Below, in pieces: positions 8,012-53,355 of a stretch of 64,000 bases of DNA. The stretch comes from a bacterium (GTDB taxonomy: Bacteria > UBA8248 > JACPRG01 > G963555815), in NCBI GenBank assembly GCA_965261595.1, contig CBDHDG010000004.1:96001-160000 (forward strand), in the 5' to 3' direction. The notes under the pieces were generated by a model. The model did not search any database, was not told the origin of the DNA, and saw only the letters and a program-made list of their open reading frames with translations. Numbering within the stretch: position 1 is the first letter of the stretch; every line of letters begins with the position of its first letter. Both the position numbers and the translations under genes were made by a program.

Positions 8012-10433
8012 GTCCCTGAAGCGGTCGTTATCGACCCGAAAAACCCCACCCGGCATGAGCGACCCGGTGATTCAGTGGGGCGTCGCGATCGGGTTGCTCA
8101 TTGCTCTGACCTTCCTGCTCATCCCGCGCGGGACGCTCCCTTCCAAGCAGCTCGACGCCGGAGACATCGTCCCCCGGGATATCAAGGCGGCCAATGACAT
8201 TCTGGTGGAGGATGTCGAATCCACCGCCAAGATCAAGGAAAAGGCCGCCGAGACCGTCCGCGAGGTCTTCGACCTCGACCCGAAACTGTCCGAGGCGATC
8301 TCCAAGCGGGTCTTGACGGAATTCGAGAAAGTCCGGAAAGGCTACGAGACGCATGCCGCCGAAGCCGCGTCCCGGCGGCCCGCGAAGCGGAAAGGGCAAT
8401 CCGGAGCGGATGCCCGGTTCGAGGAGACGCAGGCCTTCAAGACCCTTGAAGCCGGTTTTTTCGCGGCGCTGAGAATCCAGTCGGCCCCCAATCTTCTGCG
8501 CGTCCTTCGCGAGAGGCGGTACGACCCGGCATTGGCCCGGGACGTGGTAGTCCTGTTGCGCAAGGCGATGGCGCCGGGCGTGGCCGGCAACAGAAAGATC
8601 CTGGACTCTCAATCGGGCAAGGGCATCTCCATTCAGGTGGTCGGGGGAAAGGGGCTCCGGGAGGAGGTCAAGGACCTTCAACGTTTTCAGGACCTCGAGT
8701 CGGCCGCCAAAGGCCTTCCGGCGCTGGCGGAGGAATCGGGGGTCGGAAAGAACGCGCGGGAGCGCCGAGCCCTCGCGGTCCTGGCCGCGAGCCTCCTCGA
8801 GCCCAACCTGACGGTGAACAAGCAGGCGACGGAAAGCCTCCGGACCAAGGCCCGCGAGGCGGCCAAGCCGGTCTTTTTCAACATCAAGAAGGGAGAGATG
8901 ATCGCCCGGGAGGGCGAGCGAATCTCTCCCCAGCAGGTGATCAAGCTCCAGGGCCTGACCGCCCGGCGGGAAAAGCGCGGATTTGCGGGGAACGTCCTGG
9001 GAATCGCCATGCTGATCGCCGTCGCCCTGGCCTTGGCCGCGATCTATCTTCATCGGTTCAAAGCGAAACTGATGCGGTCTCCGCAAAAGGTCGTCCTGAT
9101 GGTGGTCATTCTGCTGGGGACAATCATCATCATCCAGGTTTTTATGCAAGTGGGATTGATGTTCTCCGAGGCGATGGGCTACGGGGACGCCATCAGTTAT
9201 TACTACGCCATTCCCTTCGCCACGGGCGCGATGCTGGGGGCGATCCTCCTGGACCTGGAGGTTGCCCTGTTGTTCTCCGCCCTCACGGCTTTTCTCGCGG
9301 GGCTTGTTCTGCCGCAGACCTTCGGTCTGCCCTTGACCGCGCTGGTCGGGGGGGTGGTGGCGAGCTTCCGCGTCAACCACTACCGGCGGCGCTCGAGCAT
9401 TCTGCTGACGGCGCTCTTCGTCGGCCTGGCCAACGCGGCGGTGATTGTTCCCCTCCATTTGATCGAAGGCAGGCTGTTTTCGGCCGAGGGCGGGTTTGCG
9501 GTCCTGATGGGGATCGCGGGCGGGGCCGTCACGGGGATTGTCGTGTCGGCGATCCTGCCGCTCTTGGAATCGATGTTCAACATCGCCTCGGACATCAAGC
9601 TCCTCGAGTTGGGGGACCTGGACCATCCGCTGATGCGCCAGCTCGTGATGAGGGCCCCGGGGACCTATCACCACAGCATCATGGTCAGCAGTCTGGCGGA
9701 AGAAGCGGCGGAGAAGATCGGGGCGAACCCGCTCCTGGTTCGAGTGGGCGCCTATTACCACGACATTGGAAAGATTCGAAAACGCGAGTATTTCATCGAA
9801 AACCAGACGGGGCCCGAGAATAAACACGACCCCCTGGCCCCGCGGATGAGCGCGCTGATCCTGATTTCCCACGTCAAGGACGGCGTCCTGCTGGGCCGTA
9901 AGCACAAACTGCCCGAGCAGATCATCGACTTTATCCCCGAACACCACGGGACGAGCCTGATCAGTTACTTTTACAACAAGGCCAAGGAGAGGGAGGACGC
10001 CTCGCAACAGGCGGTCAATGAGGCCGACTTCCGTTATCCGGGTCCGAAACCCCAGAGCCGGGAGGCCGGAATCCTCTTGCTGGCTGATGCGGTGGAGGCC
10101 GCGTCGCGATCGTTGCAGGACCCGACGCCGGCTCGGATTCAGAACATGGTCCGAAGCAACGTGACCCGGATTTTCGCGGAAGCCCAGCTTGATGACTGCG
10201 AGTTGACCCTGCGGGGTTTGAATCTCATCTCCAACGCCTTCGTCCGGATCCTGACGGGAATCTTCCACCACCGCATCGGTTATCCCCAGGCGGAATCGCA
10301 GGGCCAGCTCGAGATGGAGGCATTTTTCGATGCCGATATCGCTGAAGAACAGCCAGCGGACGGCGGGGATCGACCGCGCGTGGATCGTGCGGCGAGCCCG
10401 GAGGTTGCTGAAGCTTCTGGGCTGTCCAACTGA
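7992..10433 (+). CDS. 7TM-HD phosphohydrolase (PgpH-like, putative cyclic-di-AMP phosphodiesterase)
   Basis: Large extracytoplasmic domain, 7 TM segments, APGTYHHS, YYHDIGK, HHGT, YPGPKPQS, ADAVEAA; phoH-HD-ybeY synteny. Confidence 0.9.
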   Translation: MAKANGESLKRSLSTRKTPPGMSDPVIQWGVAIGLLIALTFLLIPRGTLPSKQLDAGDIVPRDIKAANDILVEDVESTAKIKEKAAETVREVFDLDPKLSEAISKRVLTEFEKVRKGYETHAAEAASRRPAKRKGQSGADARFEETQAFKTLEAGFFAALRIQSAPNLLRVLRERRYDPALARDVVVLLRKAMAPGVAGNRKILDSQSGKGISIQVVGGKGLREEVKDLQRFQDLESAAKGLPALAEESGVGKNARERRALAVLAASLLEPNLTVNKQATESLRTKAREAAKPVFFNIKKGEMIAREGERISPQQVIKLQGLTARREKRGFAGNVLGIAMLIAVALALAAIYLHRFKAKLMRSPQKVVLMVVILLGTIIIIQVFMQVGLMFSEAMGYGDAISYYYAIPFATGAMLGAILLDLEVALLFSALTAFLAGLVLPQTFGLPLTALVGGVVASFRVNHYRRRSSILLTALFVGLANAAVIVPLHLIEGRLFSAEGGFAVLMGIAGGAVTGIVVSAILPLLESMFNIASDIKLLELGDLDHPLMRQLVMRAPGTYHHSIMVSSLAEEAAEKIGANPLLVRVGAYYHDIGKIRKREYFIENQTGPENKHDPLAPRMSALILISHVKDGVLLGRKHKLPEQIIDFIPEHHGTSLISYFYNKAKEREDASQQAVNEADFRYPGPKPQSREAGILLLADAVEAASRSLQDPTPARIQNMVRSNVTRIFAEAQLDDCELTLRGLNLISNAFVRILTGIFHHRIGYPQAESQGQLEMEAFFDADIAEEQPADGGDRPRVDRAASPEVAEASGLSN

Positions 10434-10839
10434 GGAGCTCAGCGTCCTTCTGGTCGATGACGGCGAGATGTCCCGCCTCAACCAACGCCACCGGGGAGAC
10501 GGCCGACCCACCGATGTGTTGGCCTTTCCCATGCGGGAGGGCGCATTCTCCGACCTTTCGACCGGGTTGCTCGGGGACGTCGTTATCTCGGTGGAGACCG
10601 CGAGGAGCCGGGTCCGGTCGGATCCATCGCCCGGGGGGGAGGGGGGGGCTCCGCAAGCGGTCTGTAAAGGGGACCCTTTGGGAAAGGAAGTTCTCCAGTT
10701 GCTCATCCACGGGACGCTTCACTTGGTCGGTCACAATCATCAGACGCCGGGACAGACGCGGAGGATGAGGGCCGAGGAGCGGCGGTTGATCGGGCCCCTG
10801 TGGCCCGAAGACCCCCCGCGCGGGAAGGAAACGGCTTGA
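10330..10839 (+). CDS. ybeY: Endoribonuclease YbeY
   Basis: PTDVLAF, LGDVVIS, IHGTLHLVGHNH (H3xH5xH zinc motif). Confidence 0.92.
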   Translation: MPISLKNSQRTAGIDRAWIVRRARRLLKLLGCPTEELSVLLVDDGEMSRLNQRHRGDGRPTDVLAFPMREGAFSDLSTGLLGDVVISVETARSRVRSDPSPGGEGGAPQAVCKGDPLGKEVLQLLIHGTLHLVGHNHQTPGQTRRMRAEERRLIGPLWPEDPPRGKETA

Positions 10840-11330
10840 AAAATCTGTGGGCGCCCTGGCGGATGGCCTATGTCAAGGAGCATGATTTCGAGGACGGGTG
10901 TTTTTTGTGCCGCGATCTGGCCGATGGGTCCCAGGACACGGAAAACTACGTCCTCATCCGCTCGGCGCTCGCTTTCGTCATCATGAACGTCTTCCCGTAC
11001 AGCAACGGCCACTTGATGGTTTCACCCCGCCGTCACACAGGGGATTTCACGGGCCTGACCGAAGCGGAATCGGCGGAGCTCACCCGCCTCACCCAGCAGT
11101 GTATCCGGGTCCTGGATGAGACGCTGAAACCGCATGGTTACAACGTCGGGTTGAACCTGGGGGAGGCCGCGGGCGCGGGTGTCGCCGACCACCTGCACAT
11201 TCATGTCGTCCCGCGCTGGACGAACGACACGAACTTCATGCCGGTCCTCGCCGACGTGAAGCTGATTCCCGAGCATCTGACCGACACGTATCGGGTGTTG
11301 AGAGAGTCCTTCGAGAGGGCCGGGGAGTAG
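10836..11330 (+). CDS. HIT family hydrolase (Ap4A hydrolase/FHIT-like)
   Basis: LWAPWRMAY, CFLC, FPYSNGHLMV, HLHIHVVPRW; TTG start overlapping the ybeY stop. Confidence 0.9.
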   Translation: MKNLWAPWRMAYVKEHDFEDGCFLCRDLADGSQDTENYVLIRSALAFVIMNVFPYSNGHLMVSPRRHTGDFTGLTEAESAELTRLTQQCIRVLDETLKPHGYNVGLNLGEAAGAGVADHLHIHVVPRWTNDTNFMPVLADVKLIPEHLTDTYRVLRESFERAGE

Positions 11331-11332
11331 GC

Positions 11333-11692
11333 ATGGGCGCCTTGCGTTTCATCATCGCCCTGGCGTTTGTGGTCTTGCTGGTTACGTTCGGCATCAATAA
11401 CATGGAACCGGTTTCCGTGCGATTCTACGGCGTTCCGAGCCGGAGTTATCCGCTCTTCTTTCTCCTCCTGGGCGCTTTCTTATTGGGCGCCCTGGCGATC
11501 TGGCTGTTCAGCGTCTCGGAGAAGTTTCGCCTTCAGTGGCGGCTGCGCCGGGAACAATCCCAGCTTCGCTCGCTACAAGGCCGTGTGCGGGAGATGGAGG
11601 AGAGGAGCCTTGTCCCCGTGCCGGTGGAAGATGAAGATGTCCAAGAGCCTCGGGAAAACCTCCCGGCGGAAGTCCCCCCGGCCGTCCCTTGA
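11333..11692 (+). CDS. LapA/DUF1049 family membrane protein
   Basis: Two TM helices around FGINNMEPVSVRF followed by a coiled coil; RBS GGAG upstream. Confidence 0.7.
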   Translation: MGALRFIIALAFVVLLVTFGINNMEPVSVRFYGVPSRSYPLFFLLLGAFLLGALAIWLFSVSEKFRLQWRLRREQSQLRSLQGRVREMEERSLVPVPVEDEDVQEPRENLPAEVPPAVP

Positions 11693-11699
11693 TCCTGTT

Positions 11700-14405
11700 T
11701 TGGCCGATTCCTTCTCCCTTCCCGCGGGCGGAAAGACCGCTCCGCCGGCCCCTTCCCGGACGCGCCGCGAAGGCCCCGCCTTGACGCCGATGATGCGCCA
11801 GTATCGCTCCCTCAAAGGTGAGAATCCGGACGCCGTTTTGTTCTTCCGGATGGGGGACTTCTTCGAGATGTTCTACGAAGACGCGGAGCGGGCCGCGCCC
11901 GTCCTCGATCTCGCCCTGACGTCCCGGCACGACGACGCCCAGGGAAAGGTGCCGATGTGCGGATTTCCCCACCACGCCGTCGAGGGGTACGTAGCCCGGC
12001 TGGTCAAGGCGGGATTTCGCGTGGCCGTCTGCGAGCAGGTGGAAGACCCGAAAAAGGCCAAAGGCCTCGTCCGGCGTGAAGTGGTCCAGGTGGTTTCTCC
12101 CGGGACCGCGACGCAGCCGCAGGTCCTCGAGTCCAAGAGCGGAAACTTTCTTGCCGCCCTGTTCCGCGGCGACCGGGCCATCGGCCTCGCCTTTGCGGAC
12201 CTGTCCACGGGGGAGTTCCGGGCGCTTCAGCTGGAAGGCGAAGAGCGGCATGCCGCCCTGTCCGATGAATGGGCCGATCTGGACCCCAAGGAGGTTTTGT
12301 TGCCGGAAGGGGAGGCGGGCGGTCCCGATTCCCCCCCGCTGTTTCCGGATTCGCAGGAGGCCGGGAGCGCTTTAATCAGCGTGCGGCCTTCGTGGACCTT
12401 CGATCCGGAGGAAGGAGAGCGGGCCCTGCGGTCGGGATTCGGCCTCGGCTCCCTCGAGGGGCTGGGACTGAGCGACATGCCCCTGGGCGTCGGCGCGGCC
12501 GGGGCGCTCTATCACTACCTGCGCGAGACCCAGGGAGATCGGCTCGGACACTTACGGCCGCCGCGGGCCGAATTCCGCGGGGAAAGAATGCTCCTGGACG
12601 CCGCCACGCAGCGAAATCTGGAAATCCTGCGCTCCGGCCCCGAGGGGGAGCGGACCGGGACGCTCCTTGAGATCATGGACCGGACGATGACTCCGATGGG
12701 CGGCCGAAAGCTCAGGGACTGGCTCCTGCATCCGCTCATTCGAATCGAGGAGGTCCAAGCCCGCCTGGAAGCCGTTCGGGCGTTCAAGGAGACCGGCGTC
12801 GGCCTCGAAGCGCTGCGCGGCGCCCTTGAACGAATCGGAGACCTGGAAAGACTACTGGCGCGGCTTCACCTGGGGGCGGGCAACGCGCGCGACCTCCTCC
12901 ATTTGGGGCGGTCACTCGACGCGCTGCCGCTCGTCCGGGAGGCCCTGGCGGACCTCGAGGCGGAAATCATCCGGGATCACCTCGGGGATTGGGACGATCT
13001 CTCCGACGTGGGCGCGGGAATCGACGCCGCCATCGCCGAGGAGCCGCCTCTGTCCCTGCGGGAGGGTGGCCTTATCCGGCATGGGTTCCATCCCGGTCTC
13101 GACCGCCTGACGGAGTTGAGCAAGGGGGCGAAGTCCTGGCTTCGGTCTTATGAAAAACAAGAACGAGAACGGACGGGGATCAAGAATCTCAAGATCGTCT
13201 ACAACAGGGTCTTCGGCTATTGCATCGAAGTGAGCAAGCGCTCGGAGGCGGATGTCCCCGCCGATTACACCCGGCGGCAGACGCTGACGAATGCCGAGCG
13301 GTATGTCACGCCCGCGCTGAAGAAGACCGAGGAAGAAGTCCTTGAGGCCGAAGCCCGCTCCCGGGATTTGGAGTACGAGGTGTTCCAGGAGGTCCGCGGG
13401 GCGGTTCTGGCCGAAACGGAGAGGATTCAAAAGGCGGCGGAGCGGATCGCGGAGCTCGACGTCCTCTCCGGCTTCGCGGAGACGGCCATCCGGAACGACT
13501 ACGTCGAGCCGGAGGTGGATACATCCGGGGCCGTTGAGATTCGGGAGGGACGGCATCCGGTTCTCGAACGCTCGCCCGCGGCGGTCGAGGAGCGGTTCGT
13601 CCCGAACGATACGGACCTGAGCGCATCCGAGCGGCAGGTTCTGGTGGTGACCGGACCCAACATGGCGGGCAAATCCACCTACATCCGTCAAGTGGCGCTG
13701 ATCGTCCTTCTGGCCCAGGCGGGAAGCTTCGTTCCGGCCGCCTCCGCCCGTGTCGGCCTCGTCGACCGGATCTTTACGCGGGTCGGGGCGCACGACCGGC
13801 TGCAACGGGGGCAGAGCACGTTCATGGTGGAGATGGTGGAAACGGCCTACATCCTGCACCACGCCGGCCCCCGGAGTCTGGTCATCCTGGACGAGATCGG
13901 GCGCGGCACTTCGACCTTCGACGGGATCAGCATCGCTTGGGCGGTGGCCGAGCACCTTCACGGCGCCGGGGACAGCGGGCCGCGGACGTTGTTCGCCACC
14001 CATTATCACGAGCTGGCCGAGCTGACCAACCGGCTCCCCCGGATGAAGAACCTGACCATGCTGTCGCGGGAATACGAGGGGAGCGTGGTTTTTCTCCGTC
14101 AAGTGGTCGAGGGGGCTTCGGACCGAAGTTTCGGCATTCACGTGGCGCGCCTGGCGGGGTTTCCCGCGGAGACCTTGGAGCGGGCGGCCCAAATCCTTGC
14201 GACCTTCGAGGGCCGGGAAAAGGAGCGCGCGCCGAAGACGCCGCCGCCCGCGGACGCTCCTCAACTGGGCCTTTTTCGGCCGGAGGATTCCGACTGTTTG
14301 CAAACGCTGAAAGAGGCGGACCCGAATCAGATGACGCCCATCGAGGCGTTGAATTTTCTGCACCGGCTGAAGCGGAACGTCATGGGAGATGACGACCCCT
14401 CGTAA
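11700..14405 (+). CDS. mutS: DNA mismatch repair protein MutS
   Basis: TPMMRQY, FFRMGDFFEMF, GPNMAGKST, DEIGRGTST, FATHYHEL, SFGIHVARLAG. Start uncertain (TTG 11700, TTG 11781 or ATG 11790). Confidence 0.96.
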   Translation: MADSFSLPAGGKTAPPAPSRTRREGPALTPMMRQYRSLKGENPDAVLFFRMGDFFEMFYEDAERAAPVLDLALTSRHDDAQGKVPMCGFPHHAVEGYVARLVKAGFRVAVCEQVEDPKKAKGLVRREVVQVVSPGTATQPQVLESKSGNFLAALFRGDRAIGLAFADLSTGEFRALQLEGEERHAALSDEWADLDPKEVLLPEGEAGGPDSPPLFPDSQEAGSALISVRPSWTFDPEEGERALRSGFGLGSLEGLGLSDMPLGVGAAGALYHYLRETQGDRLGHLRPPRAEFRGERMLLDAATQRNLEILRSGPEGERTGTLLEIMDRTMTPMGGRKLRDWLLHPLIRIEEVQARLEAVRAFKETGVGLEALRGALERIGDLERLLARLHLGAGNARDLLHLGRSLDALPLVREALADLEAEIIRDHLGDWDDLSDVGAGIDAAIAEEPPLSLREGGLIRHGFHPGLDRLTELSKGAKSWLRSYEKQERERTGIKNLKIVYNRVFGYCIEVSKRSEADVPADYTRRQTLTNAERYVTPALKKTEEEVLEAEARSRDLEYEVFQEVRGAVLAETERIQKAAERIAELDVLSGFAETAIRNDYVEPEVDTSGAVEIREGRHPVLERSPAAVEERFVPNDTDLSASERQVLVVTGPNMAGKSTYIRQVALIVLLAQAGSFVPAASARVGLVDRIFTRVGAHDRLQRGQSTFMVEMVETAYILHHAGPRSLVILDEIGRGTSTFDGISIAWAVAEHLHGAGDSGPRTLFATHYHELAELTNRLPRMKNLTMLSREYEGSVVFLRQVVEGASDRSFGIHVARLAGFPAETLERAAQILATFEGREKERAPKTPPPADAPQLGLFRPEDSDCLQTLKEADPNQMTPIEALNFLHRLKRNVMGDDDPS

Positions 14406-14561
14406 TTTAGCCTTGCCCGCGGGGCCTGCATTCCCTAACATACCGTAAATCAAAGGTAAGGTGGTTTTAAATCCGGGAAGCCCCGGGCGTGTTTGTGAAA
14501 AGGTTTTTGTGAAGAGGAGGCCTTTCCGGTTTCCCGCGTAAAACGATTCACGAAAGATGGG

Positions 14562-14722
14562 TATTGGCCGGGCCGCCTTGCGGAATCTTGATCGCGCTTG
14601 AAAATTGACAGTAGAAGGACCGTCTTCTCGGGACCGCCTCCCGCTTGCGCTATTGGCCGGGCCGCCTTGCGGAATCTTGATCGCGCTTGAAAATTGACAG
14701 TAGAAGGACCGTCTTCTCGGGA
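14562..14722. repeat. Exact 72-bp direct repeat (14562-14633 and 14651-14722, 17-bp spacer)
   Basis: Both copies read TATTGGCCGGGCCGCCTTGCGGAATCTTGATCGCGCTTGAAAATTGACAGTAGAAGGACCGTCTTCTCGGGA. Confidence 0.95.
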
Positions 14723-14738
14723 ATGGCCGGGACGCTTC

Positions 14739-16964
14739 ATGCAAACAAAATCGACCGGAAAGAACGAACGCACGAAGACGAGGGTCCGGCGGATCATTCT
14801 GGGGATGGTGTGCGTTATCATCATGCTCGCCATCACCGGAATTTATTTCGAGTTTAATCCCACCCACCTGGTCGCCAACAACGTCATCGTTTACGCCCTG
14901 GTCAACGTCAACATCATTTTGTTGCTGGCGGTGATCCTCCTGGTGATGCGAAACCTCTTGAATCTTTACGCCGAGCGGCGTCAGGGGACTATCGGCGCCA
15001 AGTTCCGAAGCAAGTTGGTCACGGCCTTCGTGGGATTGGCGCTTGTGCCCTCCATTCTGCTCTTTGTCGTTGCCAACGGATTGATCAACCGGAGCATCGA
15101 GAGCTGGTTCAGCGCCCAGGTGGAAAGAACGCTGAGGGATTCCCAGGACGTGGTGCGGCGGATCACGGAGGAGACGGAAAGTCGATTGTCCACTTTGGCG
15201 ACGACCCTGGCCGGGAAGATTAATATCGCCGACTTCGCCCGCCCCGCCTCGCGGGCGGAATTGCAATCGGCCTTGGGGGTGATGCGGCGCGAGCATCAGA
15301 TCGACGGGCTGCAAATCATTTCCGCCGACCAAAAATCCTTCCTCAACGCCCGGAACAAGGACGCGCCGGCCGGCCTGCTTCTGATGGGCCTCGCGCCTGA
15401 GCGGATCGACAAGGTTTTGAGCGGAAAGAATGTGATCGAAAGGAAGCGCCTCGAATCGGGAAGGATCGTGCGTGCGGTCACTGCGCTGGAGGCCGGATCG
15501 GGGAAGAAACGGACGCTGGGCCTGTTGGTCCTGTCGCGTTTCATTCCTTTGAACCTGACGAAAAAGATGGAAAAGGTTGTGGGAACGTACCGCGAGTACA
15601 AGCAACTCGAGATGTTCGAGGACCCGCTCAAGCTGAGCTACCTCATCACGTTTTTGCTGATTACGCTGTTGATCATCTTCTCGGCCATCTGGTTCGGGTT
15701 CTATCTGGCCCGCGGGATCACCGAGCCCATCCAGGCCCTGGTGGAAGGCACCCGCTCGGTGGCCGAAGGCAATCTCAATACGCACGTGAAGCGGGGCGGC
15801 GACGACGAGATCGGCTATCTGGTGGACGCGTTCAACGCCATGACCTCCGATCTCAAGCGGGGAAAGGAATGGCTCGAGCGAAGCAACGACGAATTGGTAA
15901 GCCGGCGGGTGTACATGGAACGGGTCCTGGAGCGGATCGGGGCCGGCGTGGTGTCTCTGGACCGGCGCGGACGCGTGACCACCATCAACCGGTCGGCGGA
16001 GCGGGTGCTGGGCGTCAAGGGGGTGAACGCGCTGGGCTCTCACTACCGGCAGGTGTTCACGGCGCCGCTGATCGAGCCCGCCCGGGAGATCTTCCGTGAG
16101 ATTCTCCAGGCCGGCCGCGATCGCCTGGACGCCCAGCGGTCCGTCACAGTCAGCGGCCGGCTCCTGACGTTGCTGATCAGCGTCAGCGTTTTGACCGACC
16201 GCGACGGAAAAGAGCTGGGCATGGTTTTGGTGTTCGAAGACCTGACGGAGCTGCTCAAGGCGCAGAAGCTCGCCGCGTGGCGGGAAGTCGCACAGGGGAT
16301 CGCTCATGAAATCAAGAACCCCCTGACGCCCATTCAGCTTTCGACGCAGCGGCTGAGAAAAAAATATCAGGAATCCTCCCCGGACTTCGACGTGATTTTC
16401 CAGGAGTGCACGACAGTCATCATCAATCAGGTGAAGGGGCTCATGGAGTTGGTCAATGAATTTTCCCGGTTCGCCCGCATGCCCGAGCCCCAGCCCCGCT
16501 TCTGCAACCTGAACACCTTGATCCGGGAAACCGTGGCGTTGTACAAGGGACACCCGAAGGGGCTCGGGATCGAGACCGACTTCGATGAGCGGCTGGGGCA
16601 GGTCCATGTCGATGAAGAGCAGATGAAGCGCGTCTTCATCAATCTGATCGACAACGCGATTGACGCCGCGCGGCGGGGGGGGCATCTTGTCATCCGGACC
16701 TCGCGGGACGATTTTCAGGGAATGTTGAAGATCGAATTCAGTGACGACGGGTCGGGAATCTCGGCGGCGGACCGCAGCCAGTTGTTTCTGCCCTATTTCA
16801 CGACGAAGCGGCGCGGGACCGGCCTCGGTCTGGCTATCGTCCATCGGATCATCGCCGATCACGACGGCGCCATCGAGGTCCGGGAGAAATCGCCGCACGG
16901 GGCGACGTTCGAGATCCGACTTCCCTTGAATGGCGAGACCGCGCGGTCCCGGTTGGCGGTCTAG
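14739..16964 (+). CDS. ntrY: NtrY-type sensor histidine kinase (TM-periplasmic-HAMP-PAS-HisKA-HATPase)
   Basis: GAKFRSKLV...SIESWF N-terminus, HAMP (ITEPIQAL...DDEIGYLVDAFNAM), AWREVAQGIAHEIKNPLTPIQLS, NLIDNA, GTGLGL. Confidence 0.88.
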   Translation: MQTKSTGKNERTKTRVRRIILGMVCVIIMLAITGIYFEFNPTHLVANNVIVYALVNVNIILLLAVILLVMRNLLNLYAERRQGTIGAKFRSKLVTAFVGLALVPSILLFVVANGLINRSIESWFSAQVERTLRDSQDVVRRITEETESRLSTLATTLAGKINIADFARPASRAELQSALGVMRREHQIDGLQIISADQKSFLNARNKDAPAGLLLMGLAPERIDKVLSGKNVIERKRLESGRIVRAVTALEAGSGKKRTLGLLVLSRFIPLNLTKKMEKVVGTYREYKQLEMFEDPLKLSYLITFLLITLLIIFSAIWFGFYLARGITEPIQALVEGTRSVAEGNLNTHVKRGGDDEIGYLVDAFNAMTSDLKRGKEWLERSNDELVSRRVYMERVLERIGAGVVSLDRRGRVTTINRSAERVLGVKGVNALGSHYRQVFTAPLIEPAREIFREILQAGRDRLDAQRSVTVSGRLLTLLISVSVLTDRDGKELGMVLVFEDLTELLKAQKLAAWREVAQGIAHEIKNPLTPIQLSTQRLRKKYQESSPDFDVIFQECTTVIINQVKGLMELVNEFSRFARMPEPQPRFCNLNTLIRETVALYKGHPKGLGIETDFDERLGQVHVDEEQMKRVFINLIDNAIDAARRGGHLVIRTSRDDFQGMLKIEFSDDGSGISAADRSQLFLPYFTTKRRGTGLGLAIVHRIIADHDGAIEVREKSPHGATFEIRLPLNGETARSRLAV

Positions 16965-17189
16965 CCTCAGGGCTGAAACACCATGGGAGGCTTGGCGATT
17001 TCAGTCCTTGCGGCGAGGGCCGAGGGTCGGTTGACCCTGCGCCCGCCCTGGCTGAGGCCCAACCGGCTGGAGCGAAGGGGGGTTTCCTCCGCACGGTGAG
17101 GGTGTTGGATAATCGCGGATTTCTCCCTGCGGATCGCGTCGCGGGGTTTCTCAATTTCCGCTTCAAGGCTTGATTGAGGGAAGAGCGCA

Positions 17190-19382
17190 TTGAGTCGGGG
17201 TCATATCCTGATCGTAGACGACGAAGAGAGCATCCGGTTGTCCCTGGAGGGGATCCTCAAAGACGAGGGGTACACCATCTCTCAGGCGTCCGACGGGGAC
17301 GAGGCCCTGGCGCTTCTGGACCGGGTGGTCCCGGATGTGGTCCTTCTCGATGTCTGGCTTCCCGGGCTGAACGGCATTCAGGCCCTCCAGGCGGTGAGGA
17401 AGCGGCAGGCGGACCTGGAGGTCATCATGATGTCCGGTCATGCCAACATCGAAACCGCGGTCAAGGCGACAAAGCTGGGGGCGTTCGACTTCATTGAAAA
17501 ACCCTTGTCGCTGGACCAGGTGGTTCACACCGTCGAGCTGGCCTTGCGCCAGCATCGGCTGTTCCGGGAAAATTCGGGGATCCGGAGCCGCCTGGATCAG
17601 TCCTCGGAATTGATCGGCCGAAGCCGGGCCTTGTTCAAGCTTTGGCAGACGATAGAATCCTGCGCCTCCGGTGAAGGCGTTGTCTTGATTTACGGGGAGC
17701 CCGGGACCGGAAAGGAATTGGTCGCCCGATTGATTCAGGAGCGCAGGTCGGGCGTCGGCCAACCCTTCCTGCGTGTGGACTGCGGCGACGGGACTTCCGA
17801 TCCGCTGTCTCTCAAGCAGCGAACCTTCGGATCGGAAGGGCCTTCCGGCGAGGTCCAGGCCGGGGCGCTGGAAGCGGCCGGGGAGGGGGCGGTTTATCTT
17901 CATGGGGCGGAGAGGATGAATTCGGAGGTCGCCCTCTTGTTGGCCGAGGCGCTCGAATCCGGTGAATTTCGCCGCGAGGGCGGACGTCGTCCGCTTCCCA
18001 TGAAGGCCGGGATCATATTCTCCACAACCGCCGATCTTCAAATAACGCCCATCAAAGAATTATTCGATCGGGAAATCGGAGCCCTGATCTCCCACGAGCC
18101 CGTCCGCGTCCCGCCCCTGCGCGAGCGCTGGGAGGACATCCCGAGTCTCTGCGAGCACTTTCTATCGCAATATTGCAGCCATCACGGCCTGCGACGTCCG
18201 GTCATCGCCGAAGAGGCGATGGAAGCCATCGAGAAGCACGCCTGGCCGGACAACATCAAAGGGCTCATGAACACCATCGAATGGCTCATCGCCCAGGAGA
18301 CCGGAGAGGTTGTTGAAGTGGAGGACCTTCCCGGGGTGGTGCGGGGGATTACGGAAAAGGAGGCGGAAGACAGGCCGACGGTTCAGGTCCGGGAGCGGCG
18401 GAAAGGGGCCAAGGGCGCCCTGATCGAGCGTCTGAAGGAAAACAACGGAAACCTCCGCAAGACGGCTTCCGAATTGGGAATCTCCGAAGGCGATCTGCGC
18501 GCTGGAATCGACGATGACCGCCCGGGGGCCTCTTCGGGGCGGGCGGGCGCGGGCGTGGCCCAGCGGACCCTGGGAAAAAGCGTGTTGTTGAGCGGCCAGG
18601 GGCTCCATTCAGGACTGAAAACCGGCCTGATCCTCTCCCCCCTTCCGCCCGACAGCGGGATCCGGTTCGGAAGCATCACAACCGAGGAGACCGTTCCGGC
18701 CCATCTGGACAACGTGGTCTCCACGGACTTCGCCACCACCCTTCAGCGGGGAAACGTCAAGGTCCGGACCATCGAGCACCTCATGTCCACCCTGCACGCC
18801 TACGGTGTCCACAATCTCTTGATCAAGGTCGAGAACGAGATCCCCATCATGGACGGATCGGCGGTGGAATTCTGCCGGCTCATCGACGAGGCGGGCGTTA
18901 TCGAGCAGGAGGCGTCCCTCGATCCGTTGAAAATTCAATCGACCGTTGAAGTGGTTTCGGAACGCGCCGGACAGGAGCCCGCGGTGCTGAAGATCGAGCC
19001 TCACACGGAATTCATCATCGAATTCCAATTCCTCCTGCCGAAGCCCATCGGGATGCAGAAGTTCTCCTACACCCTGGACGGACCCGAATCCTTCCGGGAC
19101 GCCATCGCCCCGGCCCGGACGTTCGGCGAGATCAAAGAGGTTGAGCGGCAGGGCAAACGCGGGCTGATCGGGGGCGGAAGACTGGACAATGTGATTCTCC
19201 TGGACGCGGGAAGGGTGATCAACACGGAGCTCCGCTTTCCCGACGAGTTTGTCCGGCACAAAATCCTCGACGTTATCGGCGATCTCTACCTCCTGGGCCG
19301 GCCCCTGAGGGGGAAGGTGACCGCCCGGATGAGCGGTCACACCGAAAACATCAAACTTCTCCGCAAGATTCAGACCGCGTGA
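17190..19382 (+). CDS. lpxC: Fusion: NtrX-like response regulator (REC + degenerate sigma54-type AAA+ + Fis HTH) joined to UDP-3-O-acyl-GlcNAc deacetylase LpxC
   Basis: N-part: ILIVDDE, LLDVWLP, FIEKP, GEPGTGKE, VPPLRERWEDIP, WPDNIKGL, NNGNLRKTASELGIS. C-part from about 18560: QRTLGK..GQGLHSG, TIEHLMS, EIPIMDGSA, IAPARTFG, RHKILDVIGD, SGHTEN. One uninterrupted 730-aa frame. Confidence 0.9.
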   Translation: MSRGHILIVDDEESIRLSLEGILKDEGYTISQASDGDEALALLDRVVPDVVLLDVWLPGLNGIQALQAVRKRQADLEVIMMSGHANIETAVKATKLGAFDFIEKPLSLDQVVHTVELALRQHRLFRENSGIRSRLDQSSELIGRSRALFKLWQTIESCASGEGVVLIYGEPGTGKELVARLIQERRSGVGQPFLRVDCGDGTSDPLSLKQRTFGSEGPSGEVQAGALEAAGEGAVYLHGAERMNSEVALLLAEALESGEFRREGGRRPLPMKAGIIFSTTADLQITPIKELFDREIGALISHEPVRVPPLRERWEDIPSLCEHFLSQYCSHHGLRRPVIAEEAMEAIEKHAWPDNIKGLMNTIEWLIAQETGEVVEVEDLPGVVRGITEKEAEDRPTVQVRERRKGAKGALIERLKENNGNLRKTASELGISEGDLRAGIDDDRPGASSGRAGAGVAQRTLGKSVLLSGQGLHSGLKTGLILSPLPPDSGIRFGSITTEETVPAHLDNVVSTDFATTLQRGNVKVRTIEHLMSTLHAYGVHNLLIKVENEIPIMDGSAVEFCRLIDEAGVIEQEASLDPLKIQSTVEVVSERAGQEPAVLKIEPHTEFIIEFQFLLPKPIGMQKFSYTLDGPESFRDAIAPARTFGEIKEVERQGKRGLIGGGRLDNVILLDAGRVINTELRFPDEFVRHKILDVIGDLYLLGRPLRGKVTARMSGHTENIKLLRKIQTA

Positions 19383-20461
19383 CCCGACCTGAAAATCCGA
19401 ATCGGCCCGAATCCGGCCTGACCTACCGTGGGGCGGGCGTCGATATCGAGGCCGCCGACGCGCTGGTTCCGCGTTTGCGGGAGTTGGCCGAATCCACCCG
19501 CCGCCCGGAGGTGGAGGGAGCGATCGGAGGGTTCGGCGGCGGATTCCGGATCCCGCCGGGGCGCCGGGCGCCTGTCCTCATCGCTGGCATGGACGGCGTG
19601 GGCACAAAGCTCGATCTCCTGATCCGCACGGGGGGACACGCCGCCGCGGGGCGGGATCTGGTCGCCATGTGTGTGAACGATGTTCTGGCACACGGGGCCG
19701 AACCCCTTTTTTTCCTCGATTACATCGCGGCCGGAAGGTTGGACGCCGGCGTGGCGGCGGAAGTGGTGACCGGCGTCGCCGAGGCCTGCGTGGAATGCGG
19801 CTGTGCGCTTCTGGGCGGAGAAACGGCTGAGATGCCGGGCTTTTACGCCGGAGCGCGGTATGACCTGGCCGGCTGCGCCGTCGGCATCGTGGAACGGGAT
19901 CAGGTCATCGACGGGAAAAAGATTCGCCCGGGCGACGTCCTGTTGGGACTCGCTTCGAACGGTCCGCACAACAATGGTTTCTCCTTGATTCGGCGCATCC
20001 TGGAAGAGAAATCCCTGTCGCTGGACGCCCTGCTTCCCGGCCCGGGGGGGGGGGAGGAGGAGGTGCGAACCTTGGCAGAGGCCTTGCTGGCCCCGACGCG
20101 GCTTTACGTCCGGCCCGTCCTGGACGCCCTTCGGGAAATTCCCGTTACGGGCATCGCCCATATCACGGGCGGGGGGATTGCCGGAAACCTGGCGCGCGTC
20201 CTGCCGGAGAACTGTCGGGCCGTCGTCAGAAACGGCGATTGGCCCGTGCCGTCCGTCTTCGGCTACCTCCAATCGGCCGGCGACATCGACGCCCGGGAGA
20301 TGGAGACCGTGTTCAACATGGGGATCGGTCTCATCGTTGTGGTTTCCGCCTCCAACGGGGAGCGGATGATGAAAAAGCTGCGTCAATCCAGTGAGGAAGT
20401 CTACGCGATTGGACGCATCGAGGAAGGACGCGCGACCGGGAAGCGCGTGGTTCTGGAATAG
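19379..20461 (+). CDS. purM: Phosphoribosylformylglycinamidine cyclo-ligase
   Basis: TYRGAGVDI, DGVGTKL, DLVAMCVND, GGETAEMPG, AHITGGG, FNMGIG. Confidence 0.97.
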   Translation: MTRPENPNRPESGLTYRGAGVDIEAADALVPRLRELAESTRRPEVEGAIGGFGGGFRIPPGRRAPVLIAGMDGVGTKLDLLIRTGGHAAAGRDLVAMCVNDVLAHGAEPLFFLDYIAAGRLDAGVAAEVVTGVAEACVECGCALLGGETAEMPGFYAGARYDLAGCAVGIVERDQVIDGKKIRPGDVLLGLASNGPHNNGFSLIRRILEEKSLSLDALLPGPGGGEEEVRTLAEALLAPTRLYVRPVLDALREIPVTGIAHITGGGIAGNLARVLPENCRAVVRNGDWPVPSVFGYLQSAGDIDAREMETVFNMGIGLIVVVSASNGERMMKKLRQSSEEVYAIGRIEEGRATGKRVVLE

Positions 20462-23927: not shown

Positions 23928-24462
23928 GGATTTCGAGCCGGGATTTTGTCATCTTCGGGCTTCGCCCTCCGTCGGATCGGGGGTGGGATGGACCGTGAAT
24001 TTTTGCGGCCCGCCCCTAGCCGATTTTACGGATGATTGCCATAGCCGTGTCGTGAAGCATCTTGGACACGTTCGAAATCGTCTGCAAGATCCGCTGCGAT
24101 TTCTGGAGCATGTTCTGAAGGTCGATGTTGGCGAGCTGGGCATCGTTGCCAACGCTCGACAGCTGCCGCCGCATATCCTCGATAGTTGCTTCCATGTGCG
24201 CCTTGGTCATCGTCTTCCAACTCCGCCGGATCAAGGCGTTCTTGCCCTTCTCGAACCTGCGTCGCAGAAGGATTGACCGAACCCGTACGCCGCCGCCTCG
24301 AAGCTTCGCGGCCTTCGCGCGCAACCGCGCCATGTGATTCCTGAGCGCCTTCTTCTGTTCATTGTAAAAGCGCACCTTGTCGGCGTGGAAAGCGAGTCCC
24401 CCGCTCTAGGGTTTTGTTGGACACTCGATTGATCCATGATTCATGGAGAAAGGGGTGTCGCG

Positions 24463-24849
24463 ATGAACGAACAAAAGCAAGAGGGGGCTTTGGCGGAGGG
24501 CGCCCGCAGGGCGAACGGAGCCAAGGCCCCAGGGCATCGCAGTGAGCGGGGTCGGTTCTCCTGCCAGCGCAAGCGGGAGGCGGTCCTGCGTCTTTTGCGG
24601 GGCGAGAGCCTGGAGACGCTCTGCCGCGAGTTGGGCACGACAGCGGTTCGGCTTTCCGCCTGGCGCGAGGCGTTCCTTCGCGGGGGCGAGGCGGCGCTAA
24701 AAGCCCGCCCGGCGGATGAGCGGGACGAGGAGAACGCCCGGCTCAAGGCCAAGGTGGGCGAACTCACGATGGAGGGCGAGGTCCTGCGGGAGAAGATCGA
24801 CCGCCTGGAGGCCGGCCGCCCTTTAGCCGGCAGGAGGTGGAGGCGATGA
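24463..24849 (+). CDS. IS3-family transposase OrfA (HTH + leucine zipper)
   Basis: RFSCQRKREAVLRLL..LSAWREAF...ENARLKAKVGELTME. Confidence 0.88.
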   Translation: MNEQKQEGALAEGARRANGAKAPGHRSERGRFSCQRKREAVLRLLRGESLETLCRELGTTAVRLSAWREAFLRGGEAALKARPADERDEENARLKAKVGELTMEGEVLREKIDRLEAGRPLAGRRWRR

Positions 24850-25754
24850 GTCAGGCCCGCTTCACCTCCACGGGCAGAGCCTACGGCCTGAAGCGGGTGT
24901 GCGCCCTTTGGGGCTTGGCGCGCTCCACGGTCTACGCGCAACGGCGGCGAGAGGCGGTCCCCGTTCATGAACGCCCCACGCCCAATAAGCGCGGCCCTGT
25001 GGGCCCGTGCACCGATGCGGAACTCCTCGGCCACATCCGGCAGGTCCTGGAGGACTCTCCCTTCCATGGCGAGGGCTACCGCAAGGTGTGGGCGAGGCTG
25101 CGCTTCGCGGGCATCCGCACCAGCAAGGAGCGGGTGCGTCGCCTGATGCGGGAGGCGGGGCTTCAGGCCCCCCACCGGGTGGGCAAACCCCGAGGTCCCA
25201 AGGCCCACAACGGGACCATCCGCACCGAGCGGCCCGACCGAATGTGGGGCACGGACATGACGACGACGGTGACCACCGAGGAGGGGGTGGCCTCGGTGGT
25301 CGTGGCGGTGGATCACTGCTCGGTGGACTGCGTGGGGATCCATGCGGCCAAGAGCGGCAACCGCTTCGAGGCCCTGGAGCCGATCCGGCAGGGGGTCGCC
25401 GAGCGCTTCGCCGGCTTGGAGGCGGACGTCGCCGAGGGGCTTAAAGTTCGTCACGACCACGGCCCCGCCTATCTGTCCGATGACTTTCAGCGGGAGATCG
25501 CCTACCTGGGCATGACCAGTTCGCCCAGCTTCGTGCGGGCGCCCGAGGGAAATGGCTACTGTGAGTGGTTTATCCGCATCTTGAAGGAGAATCTCCTGTG
25601 GGTGCGCTCTTTCGCCACCGTAGAGGAACTGCGGTGGGCGCTGCTTGAGTTCAAGAACCTGTACAACCATCATTGGATTCTCGAGGGCTACGGCTACCGA
25701 ACGCCGGCCCAGGCAAGGCAGGAAAAACTCGCTCAAGTTGCGGAGGCCGCATGA
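24846..25754 (+). CDS. IS3-family transposase OrfB (DDE integrase core)
   Basis: GYRKVWARL, WGTD, RHDHG, PEGNGYCE, YNHHW; ATGA overlap with orfA. Confidence 0.9.
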   Translation: MSQARFTSTGRAYGLKRVCALWGLARSTVYAQRRREAVPVHERPTPNKRGPVGPCTDAELLGHIRQVLEDSPFHGEGYRKVWARLRFAGIRTSKERVRRLMREAGLQAPHRVGKPRGPKAHNGTIRTERPDRMWGTDMTTTVTTEEGVASVVVAVDHCSVDCVGIHAAKSGNRFEALEPIRQGVAERFAGLEADVAEGLKVRHDHGPAYLSDDFQREIAYLGMTSSPSFVRAPEGNGYCEWFIRILKENLLWVRSFATVEELRWALLEFKNLYNHHWILEGYGYRTPAQARQEKLAQVAEAA

Positions 25755-26863
25755 GGTCGAATACCCTCACCCGAGTGTCCAATAACCCAGGGGCGGTCCA
25801 CGAGGTCTTTCTTCTGTTCGAGGATGCTCTCCCGCAGCACCCACAGGATAAGGGCATGTACGTTCCGCGCCGTGCGCTTGGAGAAGTGGCTTTGCGAGAA
25901 CCCTTGCCATCCGGCTTTGGCCGCCATCGTCCTTCCGGCCTTCAGGTCTCGCAGCACCCTCCTCAACGCGGCCTTCTCTCTCGCGGACACGCTTCGGGGC
26001 AACTTCCGCGCCGCCGCCGCCCGGACCATGAGCCGGATGTCAAACTTCCGCCCGCCCGCCGGGGGCTTCCCGACACGGGGCTTTTTGACAGTGGGCAGGT
26101 TAGGGTGCGGAACAGGGATCGGCCCAGCGGGAGAAGGAGTGACCGGCGCATCGGGGAACCCACGGCCGGGCTTTATCTTGGCAGGGGGCTTCTTGTAGCG
26201 ATATAGGGTGAGCTAGATGCCTGTCCTTCGGCTGACGAGCCTGCCGGCGCCCGGGTTCTGCCGTGCCACGGTGTTGTGCTTGCTTCGCCACCTGGTCGAG
26301 ACTTTCCGGCCCTCGATGTAAGGGGACAAACCCGTCCCCGAAGAATTCTCTCGGCGTTGGACACGCTGAGGTTGAGGACGGGGGGGACGGTGACCTTATG
26401 CGGCGGCGGGGGCGGCTTCGGTGGCTTCTTGATCTTGGGCGGGGGCGGGTGGAACCTGGCCAAGAGGAGGCCCGCGCTCTTTTCGGCCGCGATGACCGTG
26501 GTCTGCCCGAACACCGTGACGGGATAGCTTCCCGCAAGAATAAACGGCGTCAACATCAGCAAGAAGCGGGCAAAGAAGCGGCTAACCTTCTCGTGTGAGA
26601 TAGTCATGAATACCTCTTCCTATCGTTTCCCGGTCCATGATTCTCCGAAGGGGAGAAGAGATGTCTTCCCGCCGGCACGAAAGCTCCCCTTGCCTGGACA
26701 GGCTCTCTCTGGCTTATGTTCCGCATAAATTAAACCTTGAACTGTAGCAACCTACCACATACGGACTCAGGGCGCCCTTTGGGTGCGTGCGGTCTCATCT
26801 TGAGGCCGCCCCCAATCGGGAGTTCGCATTGAGGTCTATTTTGGGATTACTACAATACGAGAC

Positions 26864-42862: not shown

Positions 42863-42899
42863 AAAGTGGACCGGGCTTGTCCCATGTCCACTTTTTTTT
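42863..42899 (+). terminator. Rho-independent terminator after pnp
   Basis: AAAGTGGAC...GTCCAC followed by T8. Confidence 0.8.
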
Positions 42900-43128
42900 C
42901 GCCCCCCTGTCGGGTTGCCGCCGCGCTGGAGACCAGAAGGCCGGTCCGGCGCCTTCGCACGAGAACTTCCGCGCCCTCCCGGTTGTCATAATCCGAGAGC
43001 GATCCCGTCCCGGGACGGGTCCGGGGCGGGCTGTCCATCGGCCCTTGAAAGTCCGGCTTGATGGGTTTGATAATGACGGTGTGGGGAAGCGGATGTGGAA
43101 GACGCGATTCGGGAGGGCCGGAAGGCCG

Positions 43129-51670: not shown

Positions 51671-51854
51671 AATCCTTCTCCAACGCGATGGATCGGTGGA
51701 TGAAACGCTGCCCGGCCGGGGGAGGAGGGGAGGGAGGGAGGCCGAAATTGTCGCCGACCTCCCCGCATTCCGTATCTTAAGGACCCTCTCCCCCGCTCTA
51801 GGGTTTTGTTGGACACTCGATTGATCCATGATTCATGGAGAAAGGGGTGTCGCG

Positions 51855-53146: not shown

Positions 53147-53355
53147 GGTCGAATACCCTCACCCGAGTGTCCAATAACCCAGGGGCGGTCCACCTCCCCG
53201 CCGAATGGCAAGCCCAAAACAATCGGCGCGGGCGGACCCCTTTCCCATTTCAGTGGTATATAATCCGGCGTTGGCTGTCCGCGGATAGATTGGCGGCGTC
53301 TTCTGAGGGTTGCGGATGATGCCGGTCCGGGCGACCCCCGGCCGATGCGCCGCGT

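Follow-up and report, generated by a model that had tools for sequence, protein, structure and literature searches.

Lipid A synthesis is committed, and most tightly controlled, at the step catalyzed by LpxC, the UDP-3-O-acyl-GlcNAc deacetylase, which is also an antibiotic target. Stand-alone LpxC is known to be controlled by FtsH/LapB proteolysis in E. coli, and LpxC-FabZ fusions are known as well. The FtsH degron of E. coli LpxC was reportedly placed, by Fuhrer in 2006, at the C-terminal end of the protein. Enzymes also serve as the output domains of response regulators, as in the methylesterase CheB, the diguanylate cyclases PleD and WspR, and the HD-GYP protein RpfG.

A link between NtrYX-type systems and lpxC has already been published, at the level of transcription, in the available parts of three sources (PMC3333781, PMC7240162, PMC12444477). 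NtrYX is tied functionally to lpxC and to the cell envelope both in C. crescentus and in R. sphaeroides (PMC7240162, PMC12444477), and in the latter the loss of ntrYX increases lpxC mRNA 8.8-fold and raises the amount of LPS (PMC7240162). In D. vulgaris, lpxC is given as the only DAP-chip target of the regulator DVU2934, and in S. fumaroxidans lpxC adjoins an operon orthologous to that of DVU2934 (PMC3333781, in part). The NtrYX-family phenotypes reported in the accessible portion of a 2025 review are many and pleiotropic; the same portion describes the control of LpxC by proteolysis, partner proteins and transcription, and nowhere does the review use the terms "fused", "fusion" or "response regulator" (PMC12444477). 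Brucella NtrX, in the available part of its description, is a repressor and an atypical enhancer-binding protein, one without GAFTGA (PMC6158489).

Here, we describe a gene in which an NtrX-like response regulator and LpxC form a single protein. It lies in a 64-kb stretch of bacterial DNA, the window, which was analyzed as a whole. The features of the locus are:

14739..16964, + strand: ntrY, membrane sensor histidine kinase (NtrY_N, HAMP, PAS, HisKA and HATPase_c in Pfam)
17190..19382, + strand: fused gene ntrX-lpxC, a single 730-aa frame with a TTG start and its stop at 19380-19382
17205..17534, + strand: receiver (REC) domain, residues 6-115 (Pfam Response_reg, 106.5 bits)
17349-17351, + strand: codon of the acceptor Asp54 in the receiver of ntrX-lpxC
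17610..18368, + strand: degenerate AAA+ domain of the sigma-54-activator type with lid, residues 141-393 (Pfam Sigma54_activat and AAA_lid_14)
18399..18509, + strand: Fis-type HTH remnant, residues 404-440 (predicted helices, no HTH_8 match)
18510..18560, + strand: Gly/Ala/Ser/Arg-rich linker, residues 441-457 (pLDDT <50 at 443-453)
18561..19370, + strand: LpxC domain, residues 458-727 (Pfam, TIGR00325)

An earlier note on this DNA had claimed one 730-aa frame at 17190-19382, and both the open reading frame list and a reading of the DNA bear this out. The DNA as read contains neither a stop codon nor a change of frame between the HTH region and the N-terminus of LpxC, the GC content is even across this junction (0.617 before and 0.609 after, with 0.628 for the whole window), and in an alignment the N-terminus of the protein lines up with the Met start of its relatives. 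All of the motifs that the note had named were found: D10/D11, the acceptor D54, K104-P105, E529-H530, H690-K691-D694 and H717. The note knew of no characterized receiver-LpxC fusion, and none was found in the literature either.

The combination of receiver and LpxC occurs in a large family with long and short forms, the long form having the receiver-AAA+-LpxC architecture of the window protein and the short form, of about 430-460 aa, lacking the AAA+ domain. The collected sequences comprise 56 long and 94 receiver-LpxC proteins; the best 150 representatives at 50% identity include 14 long and 20 receiver-LpxC ones. The ESM Atlas cluster of the fusion has 381 members, with Nitrospinota as the commonest phylum. 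The receiver-LpxC fusion is thus a large, widespread and uncharacterized family rather than a one-off. Its members are found mostly in uncultured diderm phyla.

That the fusion contains a full LpxC with catalytic and zinc motifs, as had been claimed, is confirmed by Pfam, NCBIfam and a reading of the motifs. The Pfam LpxC profile (PF03331) matches with 273 bits (cut-off 27) over positions 1-266 of 268, the NCBIfam equivalog lpxC (TIGR00325) scores 239 bits against a cut-off of 187.25, and PDB LpxC chains match the domain at E of about 1e-50. Residues E529, H530, T644, H690, K691, D694, D698 and H717 are kept in 52/52 long forms and F645 in 51/52, and these nine catalytic, zinc or substrate positions are each kept in 86-87 of the 87 short forms. 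Invariant in both sets (52/52 and 87/87) are H530, H690, D694, E529 and H717, among which we take the zinc ligands (His, His, Asp) and the catalytic Glu/His to lie, from the roles assigned in the E. coli and A. aeolicus enzymes. The LpxC part is therefore predicted to be competent as an enzyme, with the fold, catalytic residues and pathway step of stand-alone LpxC. What it lacks is the C-terminal extension: only 3 residues of the window protein lie beyond its Pfam match, compared with approximately 19-25 in the aligned PDB chains, which are 295-305 aa long. In a tree, a branch with an SH-aLRT of 100 separates the fused LpxC domains from 27 stand-alone LpxCs drawn from loci. No second lpxC is present within the 64-kb window.

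The gene upstream encodes a kinase of the NtrY type, in agreement with the earlier reading. Its frame opens at TTG 14694, ATG 14739 being the likelier start; NtrY_N matches with 46.9 bits (cut-off 23.2) over profile positions 10-291 of 291, and the gene product shares 31-41% identity, along most of its length, with the products of ntrY genes in 22 other loci. An ntrY gene lies directly upstream in both of the long-form loci in which the neighborhood is visible, the window and L001 (n=2); in the one short-form locus (L002), no kinase is found within 10 kb. The likeness to the alphaproteobacterial NtrY/NtrX pair extends to the regulator, in that residues 5-435 have Brucella NtrX (5m7n) as their best PDB match (E 3.8e-73). 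The NCBIfam NtrX equivalog (NF051870) is likewise the best-scoring regulator family, at 303.2 bits, although this is half of its cut-off of 600. GAFTGA is absent from both the fusion and NtrX as described in the part of PMC6158489 available. Unlike NtrX, the fusion carries a whole C-terminal LpxC, has lost the Walker B Asp-Glu pair, and has an HTH below detection.

Of 19 evaluable unfused loci, 10 have lpxC on the same strand as ntrY-ntrX and no more than 2 kb upstream of it. This proportion is to be read with the retrieval in mind, since the loci were collected with a receiver pattern as well as an LpxC pattern, and those that contain both genes could be picked in either of two ways. A DUF4390 gene sits between lpxC and ntrY-ntrX in 8 of these 10. 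These lpxC-DUF4390(PlrP)-ntrY-ntrX operons share with the fusion the kinase family and the partnership with lpxC; they differ in that lpxC is a separate gene and DUF4390 is usual, whereas in the window lpxC is fused and DUF4390 is absent among the 119 ORFs of at least 150 aa. The D. vulgaris genes DVU2931-DVU2934, which act on lpxC, are likened to the fusion by their published description, as partly available, and not by the sequence of DVU2934. In the published NtrYX cases, as far as the accessible text goes, control of lpxC is transcriptional, and indirect in R. sphaeroides; the fusion joins LpxC to the regulator in the protein itself.

The receiver of the window protein has a complete pocket (D10, D11, D54, S82 and K104), in one chain with the catalytic domain. 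In the alignment, D10, D11, D54 and K104 are kept in 52/53 long forms; of the short forms, 86/87 keep the acceptor Asp and all 87 keep K104 and P105. The active sites of receiver and LpxC are thus both under strong constraint. The region between them differs. The AAA+-like region of the earlier note is indeed matched by Sigma54_activat (residues 141-287, 68.6 bits, profile positions 1-149 of 168) and AAA_lid_14 (residues 311-393, 67.9 bits), but it has neither the GAFTGA loop nor the Walker B Asp-Glu pair, both of which are missing from 53 of 53 aligned long forms, with His-Gly at the Walker B site of the window protein. Walker A is retained in the window protein, and its Lys in 50/53 long forms. 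Among unfused NtrC-family controls, GAFTGA is found in 36/86 exactly and in 49/86 by a looser pattern, and the Walker B pair in 71/86. The six aligned regulators of lpxC-linked operons have the Walker B pair in 6/6, GAFTGA in 3/6 and a Pfam HTH_8 match in 5/6; their Sigma54_activat scores are 206-252 bits vs 31-141 in the long forms. Judged from these motifs, the AAA+ domain of ntrX-lpxC is no longer able to contact sigma-54 and is very probably unable to hydrolyze ATP.

The Fis-type HTH that had been claimed is similarly reduced. HTH_8 (PF02954) gives no Pfam match in the window protein at E<=0.01, and yet AlphaFold2 predicts three short helices, at 404-417, 422-429 and 433-440 (pLDDT 52-86 for the block). 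In the alignment, the last of these helices has become acidic relative to its counterpart in the closest relatives. HTH_8 is detected in 13/52 long forms, and the other 39, the window protein included, have no match. The transcription-factor part of the long forms has thus decayed. The closest relatives (63-68% identity) still match HTH_8, and part of the family may therefore still bind DNA. The linker that follows, residues 441-457, is not conserved among relatives. The AlphaFold2 model of the window protein has a pTM of 0.49, and so no defined packing of receiver against LpxC is predicted.

The simplest objection is that ntrX and lpxC are in truth separate genes, joined through an error of assembly or sequencing, or because a stop codon was recently lost. 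Other genes in the window do look frameshifted, Amidase_3 and CorA each being split over two ORFs, and the LpxC part has a 94% identical counterpart in a protein of 279 aa, which is encoded on a contig of 1464 bases. However, the shorter matches come mostly from contigs of 1-3 kb, several being named "partial" by their source, and the alignment has no conserved Met or Val start at the junction. The fusion itself recurs in many independent assemblies, at 36-96% identity, and the junction is marked there by a short linker at the same place. Because of this recurrence we regard an artefact as extremely improbable, and ntrX-lpxC is a genuine, conserved response regulator with an enzyme as its output. 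An unlikely, though more substantial, alternative is that the chain holds two independent functions, an NtrX-like, sigma-54-independent DNA-binding regulator and an ordinary LpxC, and that fusion fixes only their co-expression or stoichiometry. The best PDB match is itself a repressor without GAFTGA (PMC6158489, as partly available), other bacteria have NtrYX-type regulators that affect the transcription of lpxC (PMC3333781, PMC7240162, PMC12444477, in the parts available), a three-helix fold is still predicted in the window protein, and the 13 long forms with HTH_8 include its closest relatives. Yet HTH_8 goes unmatched in three quarters of the long forms, the last helix is acidic in the window protein, and an operon would suffice for co-expression, as in the 10 unfused loci. 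The short forms also argue against it: none of the 87 has a DNA-binding domain or any other output domain, and 86 of them nevertheless keep the acceptor Asp. With the short form consisting of receiver and LpxC only, LpxC is the sole possible output in cis, and the conserved phospho-acceptor can act only via LpxC or via partner proteins.

The direction of communication could also be reversed, with LpxC as the input: the enzyme domain would inform the regulator of the level of substrate or product, or of its own occupancy, and the regulator would adjust transcription or signaling. The earlier note had offered this coupling of LpxC to transcription as an alternative, and with Walker A kept in 50/53 long forms a nucleotide-dependent switch is conceivable. 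Communication of this kind is conceivable too, but for the window protein it is the weaker branch because the transcription-factor part has decayed; that output is absent altogether from the short forms, the receiver is the input in known response regulators, and the invariant catalytic residues suit a working enzyme. We therefore consider LpxC as input quite improbable. The reading that we favor, as the earlier note had proposed, is phosphorelay control of LpxC. By comparison it is the best supported, because the fusion is conserved, the receiver and LpxC sites are constrained, and the short form has LpxC alone as its output; we infer that NtrY donates the phosphoryl group, and likewise whether and in which direction LpxC is affected, and by what mechanism.

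In the favored scheme, the NtrY kinase encoded upstream would sense an envelope or periplasmic signal and phosphorylate Asp54 of the receiver, whose phosphorylation state would in turn set the cell's amount of LpxC activity at the level of the protein. That NtrY phosphorylates the receiver and that phosphorylation thereby sets the activity, assembly or stability of LpxC is, in our judgment, somewhat better than an even prospect. The likeliest route would be that phosphorylation shifts the dimer or oligomer state via the receiver and its long alpha-5 helix, leading to altered access to the LpxC active site or altered protein stability. The AAA+ and HTH remnant would most likely be a nucleotide-binding or oligomerization scaffold between receiver and enzyme. 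In many lineages the AAA+ domain has been lost entirely, and receiver-linker-LpxC remains. In the short-form model, alpha-5 extends to residue 144 and is followed by a disordered linker; short-form linkers, of 18-57 aa, are unconserved, and the linkers modeled in a short form and in the window protein have pLDDT <50, as expected of flexible segments. CheB, PleD/WspR and RpfG similarly combine an intact phospho-acceptor receiver, a flexible linker and a catalytic domain in one chain, and by analogy phosphorylation-dependent activity would be expected of the fusion as well. These are enzymes of signaling and chemotaxis, whereas the output of the fusion is an enzyme of lipid A biosynthesis, and, unlike them, the long fusion has a decayed AAA+/HTH module between receiver and enzyme. 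More tentatively, NtrY and NtrX~LpxC may act as a phospho-switch placed directly on the enzyme that catalyzes the committed step of the lipid A pathway. The kinase, reading the state of the envelope from the membrane, would toggle LpxC within seconds through altered assembly of the catalytically dead AAA+ scaffold in the long form or of a receiver dimer in the short form, and the switch would take the place of FtsH/LapB proteolysis in Nitrospinota, Tectomicrobia, Thermodesulfobacteriota, Binatia and relatives.

The permanent joining of a receiver to LpxC suggests that outer-membrane synthesis answers to a membrane sensor through the enzyme itself. Direct signaling to the enzyme would add a further principle to the control of LpxC, and the short form, with two domains in about 450 aa, would suit biochemistry. 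Control of this kind would also give the NtrYX family a defined output. If the direct phospho-switch is true, the fusion would be a Rosetta stone, showing that LpxC control has long been among the core tasks of the NtrYX family.

A single uninterrupted reading frame of 730 amino acids, opening with a TTG start codon, occupies 17190..19382 (+) and joins a receiver and an AAA+-like region to LpxC, as the earlier note had read it. Inspection of the DNA at 18300-18700 revealed neither a stop codon nor a change of frame between the HTH region and the N-terminus of LpxC, and the GC content is level across the junction. The receiver and LpxC motifs named in that note are all present in the fused protein, and the frame preceding it does encode the NtrY-type kinase placed there.

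Domains of the kinase and of the fused protein (Pfam)
14694/14739..16964 (+), kinase frame before the fusion: NtrY_N, HAMP, PAS, HisKA, HATPase_c
Fused protein, residues 6-115: receiver (Response_reg), 106.5 bits
Fused protein, residues 141-287: Sigma54_activat, 68.6 bits, profile positions 1-149 of 168 only
Fused protein, residues 311-393: AAA_lid_14
Fused protein, residues 458-727: LpxC, 273 bits, profile positions 1-266 of 268

The C-terminal part exceeds the NCBIfam lpxC equivalog cut-off (239 versus 187.25), and among regulator families the N-terminal part scores highest with NtrX (303 bits; cut-off 600). In terms of family membership the protein is an LpxC with a receiver and an NtrY partner; it is neither a sigma-54 activator nor an NtrX equivalog. 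The GTG at 18555 was rejected as a conserved internal start because relatives carry no conserved start residue at that position.

The fusion is real, and it recurs among relatives. In a search with the LpxC part, the best 120 proteins of 401-1278 aa all couple LpxC to Response_reg and/or the Sigma54/AAA lid domains. Domain mapping of the best 150 matches from a phmmer run against 1.84 billion cluster representatives (50% identity) identified 14 representatives of the long REC-AAA-LpxC architecture and 20 with a receiver and LpxC only, the short form. The 270 proteins collected include 56 REC-AAA-LpxC and 94 REC-LpxC proteins; identity of the relatives to the fused protein runs from 96% (P0004, a database protein) down to 36%, and their source names include Nitrospinota, Candidatus Tectomicrobia, Thermodesulfobacteriota and Candidatus Binatia. 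The ESM Atlas cluster containing the fused protein has 381 members, with Nitrospinota the commonest phylum. Fusion proteins P0005 and P0014 are encoded on contigs of 2.35 Mb and 2.15 Mb, respectively. An artefact that joins truly separate ntrX and lpxC genes can, for practical purposes, be ruled out. Shorter matches to the LpxC part decide nothing about split genes, because most come from 1-3 kb contigs; several carry the label "partial" from their source. A small number of genuine stand-alone LpxCs share this sequence type, among them P0353, a 275-aa protein on a 7.8-kb contig.

Residues and motifs were counted in 53 long forms (52 database proteins of more than 680 aa and L001, a locus from our genome scan), in short forms, in unfused NtrC-family controls and in regulators from lpxC-linked operons.

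Conserved residues and motifs (numbering of the 730-aa fused protein)
LpxC E529, H530, T644, H690, K691, D694, D698, H717: long forms 52/52; short forms 86-87/87
LpxC F645: long forms 51/52; short forms 87/87
Acceptor Asp54: long forms 52/53; short forms 86/87; unfused controls 85/86; operon regulators 6/6
GAFTGA: long forms 0/53; unfused controls 36/86 exact, 49/86 loose; operon regulators 3/6
Walker B Asp-Glu: long forms 0/53; unfused controls 71/86; operon regulators 6/6
Walker A Lys: long forms 50/53; unfused controls 84/86; operon regulators 6/6

Residues D10, D11 and K104 parallel Asp54 in the long forms (52/53), and K104 and P105 are present in all 87 short forms. The fused protein of the window has His-Gly at the Walker B Asp-Glu site. 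Sigma54_activat scores range from 31 to 141 bits in the 52 long forms; those of the six operon regulators lie at 206-252 bits. At E<=0.01, HTH_8, the Pfam Fis-type HTH, is found in 13 of the 52 long forms, ten of which reach the 22-bit cut-off. At this threshold the Fis-type HTH proposed by the earlier note has no match in the fused protein or in its 96% relative, although AlphaFold2 predicts three short helices at residues 404-440; the domain is present in the next relatives of this pair (63-68% identity). Together, these counts and scores indicate firm conservation of the receiver and the enzyme, alongside gradual loss of the sigma-54 motor and of the DNA-binding end. The main rival explanation holds that the fusion serves only to couple expression, with a regulator part that continues to bind DNA; this is more plausible where HTH_8 is retained, as in some relatives, than in the fused protein of the window.

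The short forms bear most directly on function. LpxC is their only output domain, and the retention of the acceptor Asp in 86 of 87 argues that phosphorylation must matter for LpxC or its partners. In the long form this receiver and enzyme recur, separated by a decayed NtrX body, and the gene lies behind that of an NtrY kinase. From this anatomy, NtrY and the fused protein most likely constitute a two-component system with LpxC itself as the output. The dead AAA+ domain would most likely serve as a scaffold, and the dimerisation helix of the receiver is the likely moving part. Phosphorylation might raise or lower LpxC activity, by changing how accessible the active site is, how the protein assembles or how fast it is turned over.

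The AlphaFold2 model of the fused protein has four confident domains (mean pLDDT 89.0, pTM 0.49) with low-confidence connections at 129-138, 391-406 and 443-453, and predicts no fixed domain arrangement. In the model of a 447-aa short form, L002 (pLDDT 88.3, pTM 0.72), helix alpha-5 of the receiver reaches residue 144 and is followed by disorder at 146-165. Linkers of the short forms span 18-57 aa with a median of 50; twelve that were inspected appear to be of low complexity. A complex prediction for the receiver (1-125) and the LpxC domain (455-730), cut from alignment A2, gave a score of 0.00 and a mark of 0.32, which speaks neither for nor against binding.

An LpxC tree made by a quick method from 87 rows (L013 was left out for an internal stop, and L017 is not in it) has long and short forms interspersed, with starred branches forcing at least 7-8 changes; a single clean origin for each form is therefore not supported. 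Within the fused group the tree also places five database proteins that appear to be unfused; some of them are probably fragments. By BLAST, 51 of 87 short-form receivers score higher against long-form than against unfused NtrC-type receivers (median difference 1 bit), as do 19 of 52 long-form receivers (median difference -2 bits).

The genome scan was run with a single pattern for the receiver and another for LpxC, and matched at least 587 stretches, mostly ordinary lpxC genes, from which 80 loci were kept. Among the matches listed there is one further long-form locus, L001 from a Thermodesulfobacteriota MAG, again with ntrY directly upstream, and one short-form locus, L002, where no kinase gene lies within 10 kb of the short form. 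At L002 (8334-12238, on chromosome CP070817.1) the short form is flanked on one side by genes for a sigma-70-family factor and hsp20, and on the other by a gene of the Asp/Glu racemase family. Together with the window, the matches listed give 21 evaluable NtrY loci (L019 and L030, which have no upstream flank, were set aside). Two are the fusions of the window and L001; in ten, lpxC is a gene of its own on the same strand, no more than 2 kb upstream (L011, L012, L013, L017, L022, L026, L038, L041, L072, L076), and nine have no such gene (L003, L005, L006, L028, L046, L052, L054, L064, L077), counts in which loci with both receiver and lpxC genes had two chances of retrieval, one per scan pattern. 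Among the matches listed, eight of the ten lpxC-linked loci have a DUF4390 gene between lpxC and ntrY.

Several of these loci have features of their own. The lpxC segment upstream of ntrY in L013 (6267-6926) has an internal stop, and at L017 (5661-6787) only the C-terminal part of lpxC upstream of ntrY (profile positions 112-266) was found in one ORF; both genes look damaged. The regulator genes of L011, L041 and L072 (about 9500-11350), three of the six unfused lpxC-linked regulators, have no clean GAFTGA and keep the Walker B Asp-Glu, and may be partway through the decay that the fusions show. L038 (9875-15246) has the order lpxC-DUF4390-ntrY-waaA, with a Kdo transferase gene (Glycos_transf_N) at the usual place of the response regulator, and so ties a second lipid A gene to an NtrY-type kinase. 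The order at L077 (4151-14564), fmt, rsmB, DUF4390, ntrY, ntrX, trkA, trkH, is that of the Bordetella plrSR-type arrangement as given in PMC13001219.

The window is ordinary chromosome, with leuS, lptE, holA, murJ, a xer-type recombinase gene, phoH, ybeY and mutS before the ntrY/fusion pair and purM, purN, then lolA, rseP, ispG, proS, nusA, infB and pnp after it; the 64-kb window contains no second lpxC and no DUF4390 gene. The GTG start of purM shares four bases (19379-19382) with the stop codon of the fused gene, which suggests that ntrX-lpxC is co-transcribed with purM-purN. A perfect 72-nt direct repeat (14562-14633 and 14651-14722, 17 nt between copies) ends 17 nt ahead of the ntrY ATG at 14739; it has no further copy in the window and no Rfam match, and could be a duplicated promoter/operator region or an assembly duplication. 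The Rfam scan of 14300-19600 yielded no match, and a promoter and terminator scan found nothing exceeding shuffle expectation. Elsewhere, a 1405-nt element encoding an HTH_21/rve (IS3-type) transposase occurs twice (24397-25801 and 51789-53193, 99.4% identical), with a Mutator-family transposase gene nearby (55195-56559, minus strand). An Amidase_3 gene (42877-44327, plus strand) and a CorA gene (50704-51829, minus strand) each seem split over two overlapping ORFs; these frameshifts are pseudogenes or sequencing errors.

Earlier studies connect NtrYX-type regulators with lpxC at the level of transcription. In Desulfovibrio vulgaris, lpxC was the sole DAP-chip target of DVU2934, and the operon of S. 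fumaroxidans orthologous to that of DVU2934 has lpxC immediately upstream (Rajeev et al. 2011, PMC3333781). In R. sphaeroides, lpxC mRNA was up 8.8-fold and LPS increased in an ntrYX mutant, with no NtrX site at lpxC (Lemmer et al. 2020, PMC7240162). According to PMC6158489, NtrX of Brucella acts as a repressor and is an atypical enhancer-binding protein; DUF4390 (PlrP) has been proposed as a periplasmic third component in a subset of NtrYX systems (PMC13001219). A 2025 review of lipid A regulation counts NtrYX among the transcriptional regulators of lpxC, and the words "fused", "fusion" and "response regulator" are absent from its available text (PMC12444477). We found no description of a receiver-LpxC or NtrX-LpxC fusion in the literature; Galperin's census of bacterial response regulators may list the architecture.

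Each component of this system (NtrY kinase, NtrX-like regulator, LpxC) is already known, and so is the principle: in CheB, PleD and RpfG a receiver controls an enzyme to which it is joined in one chain, as it would in the fused protein. What is new is the output, a committed biosynthetic enzyme of the outer membrane. Also new is the appearance of one regulatory partnership in three states: transcriptional control of lpxC, a shared operon and a fused protein.
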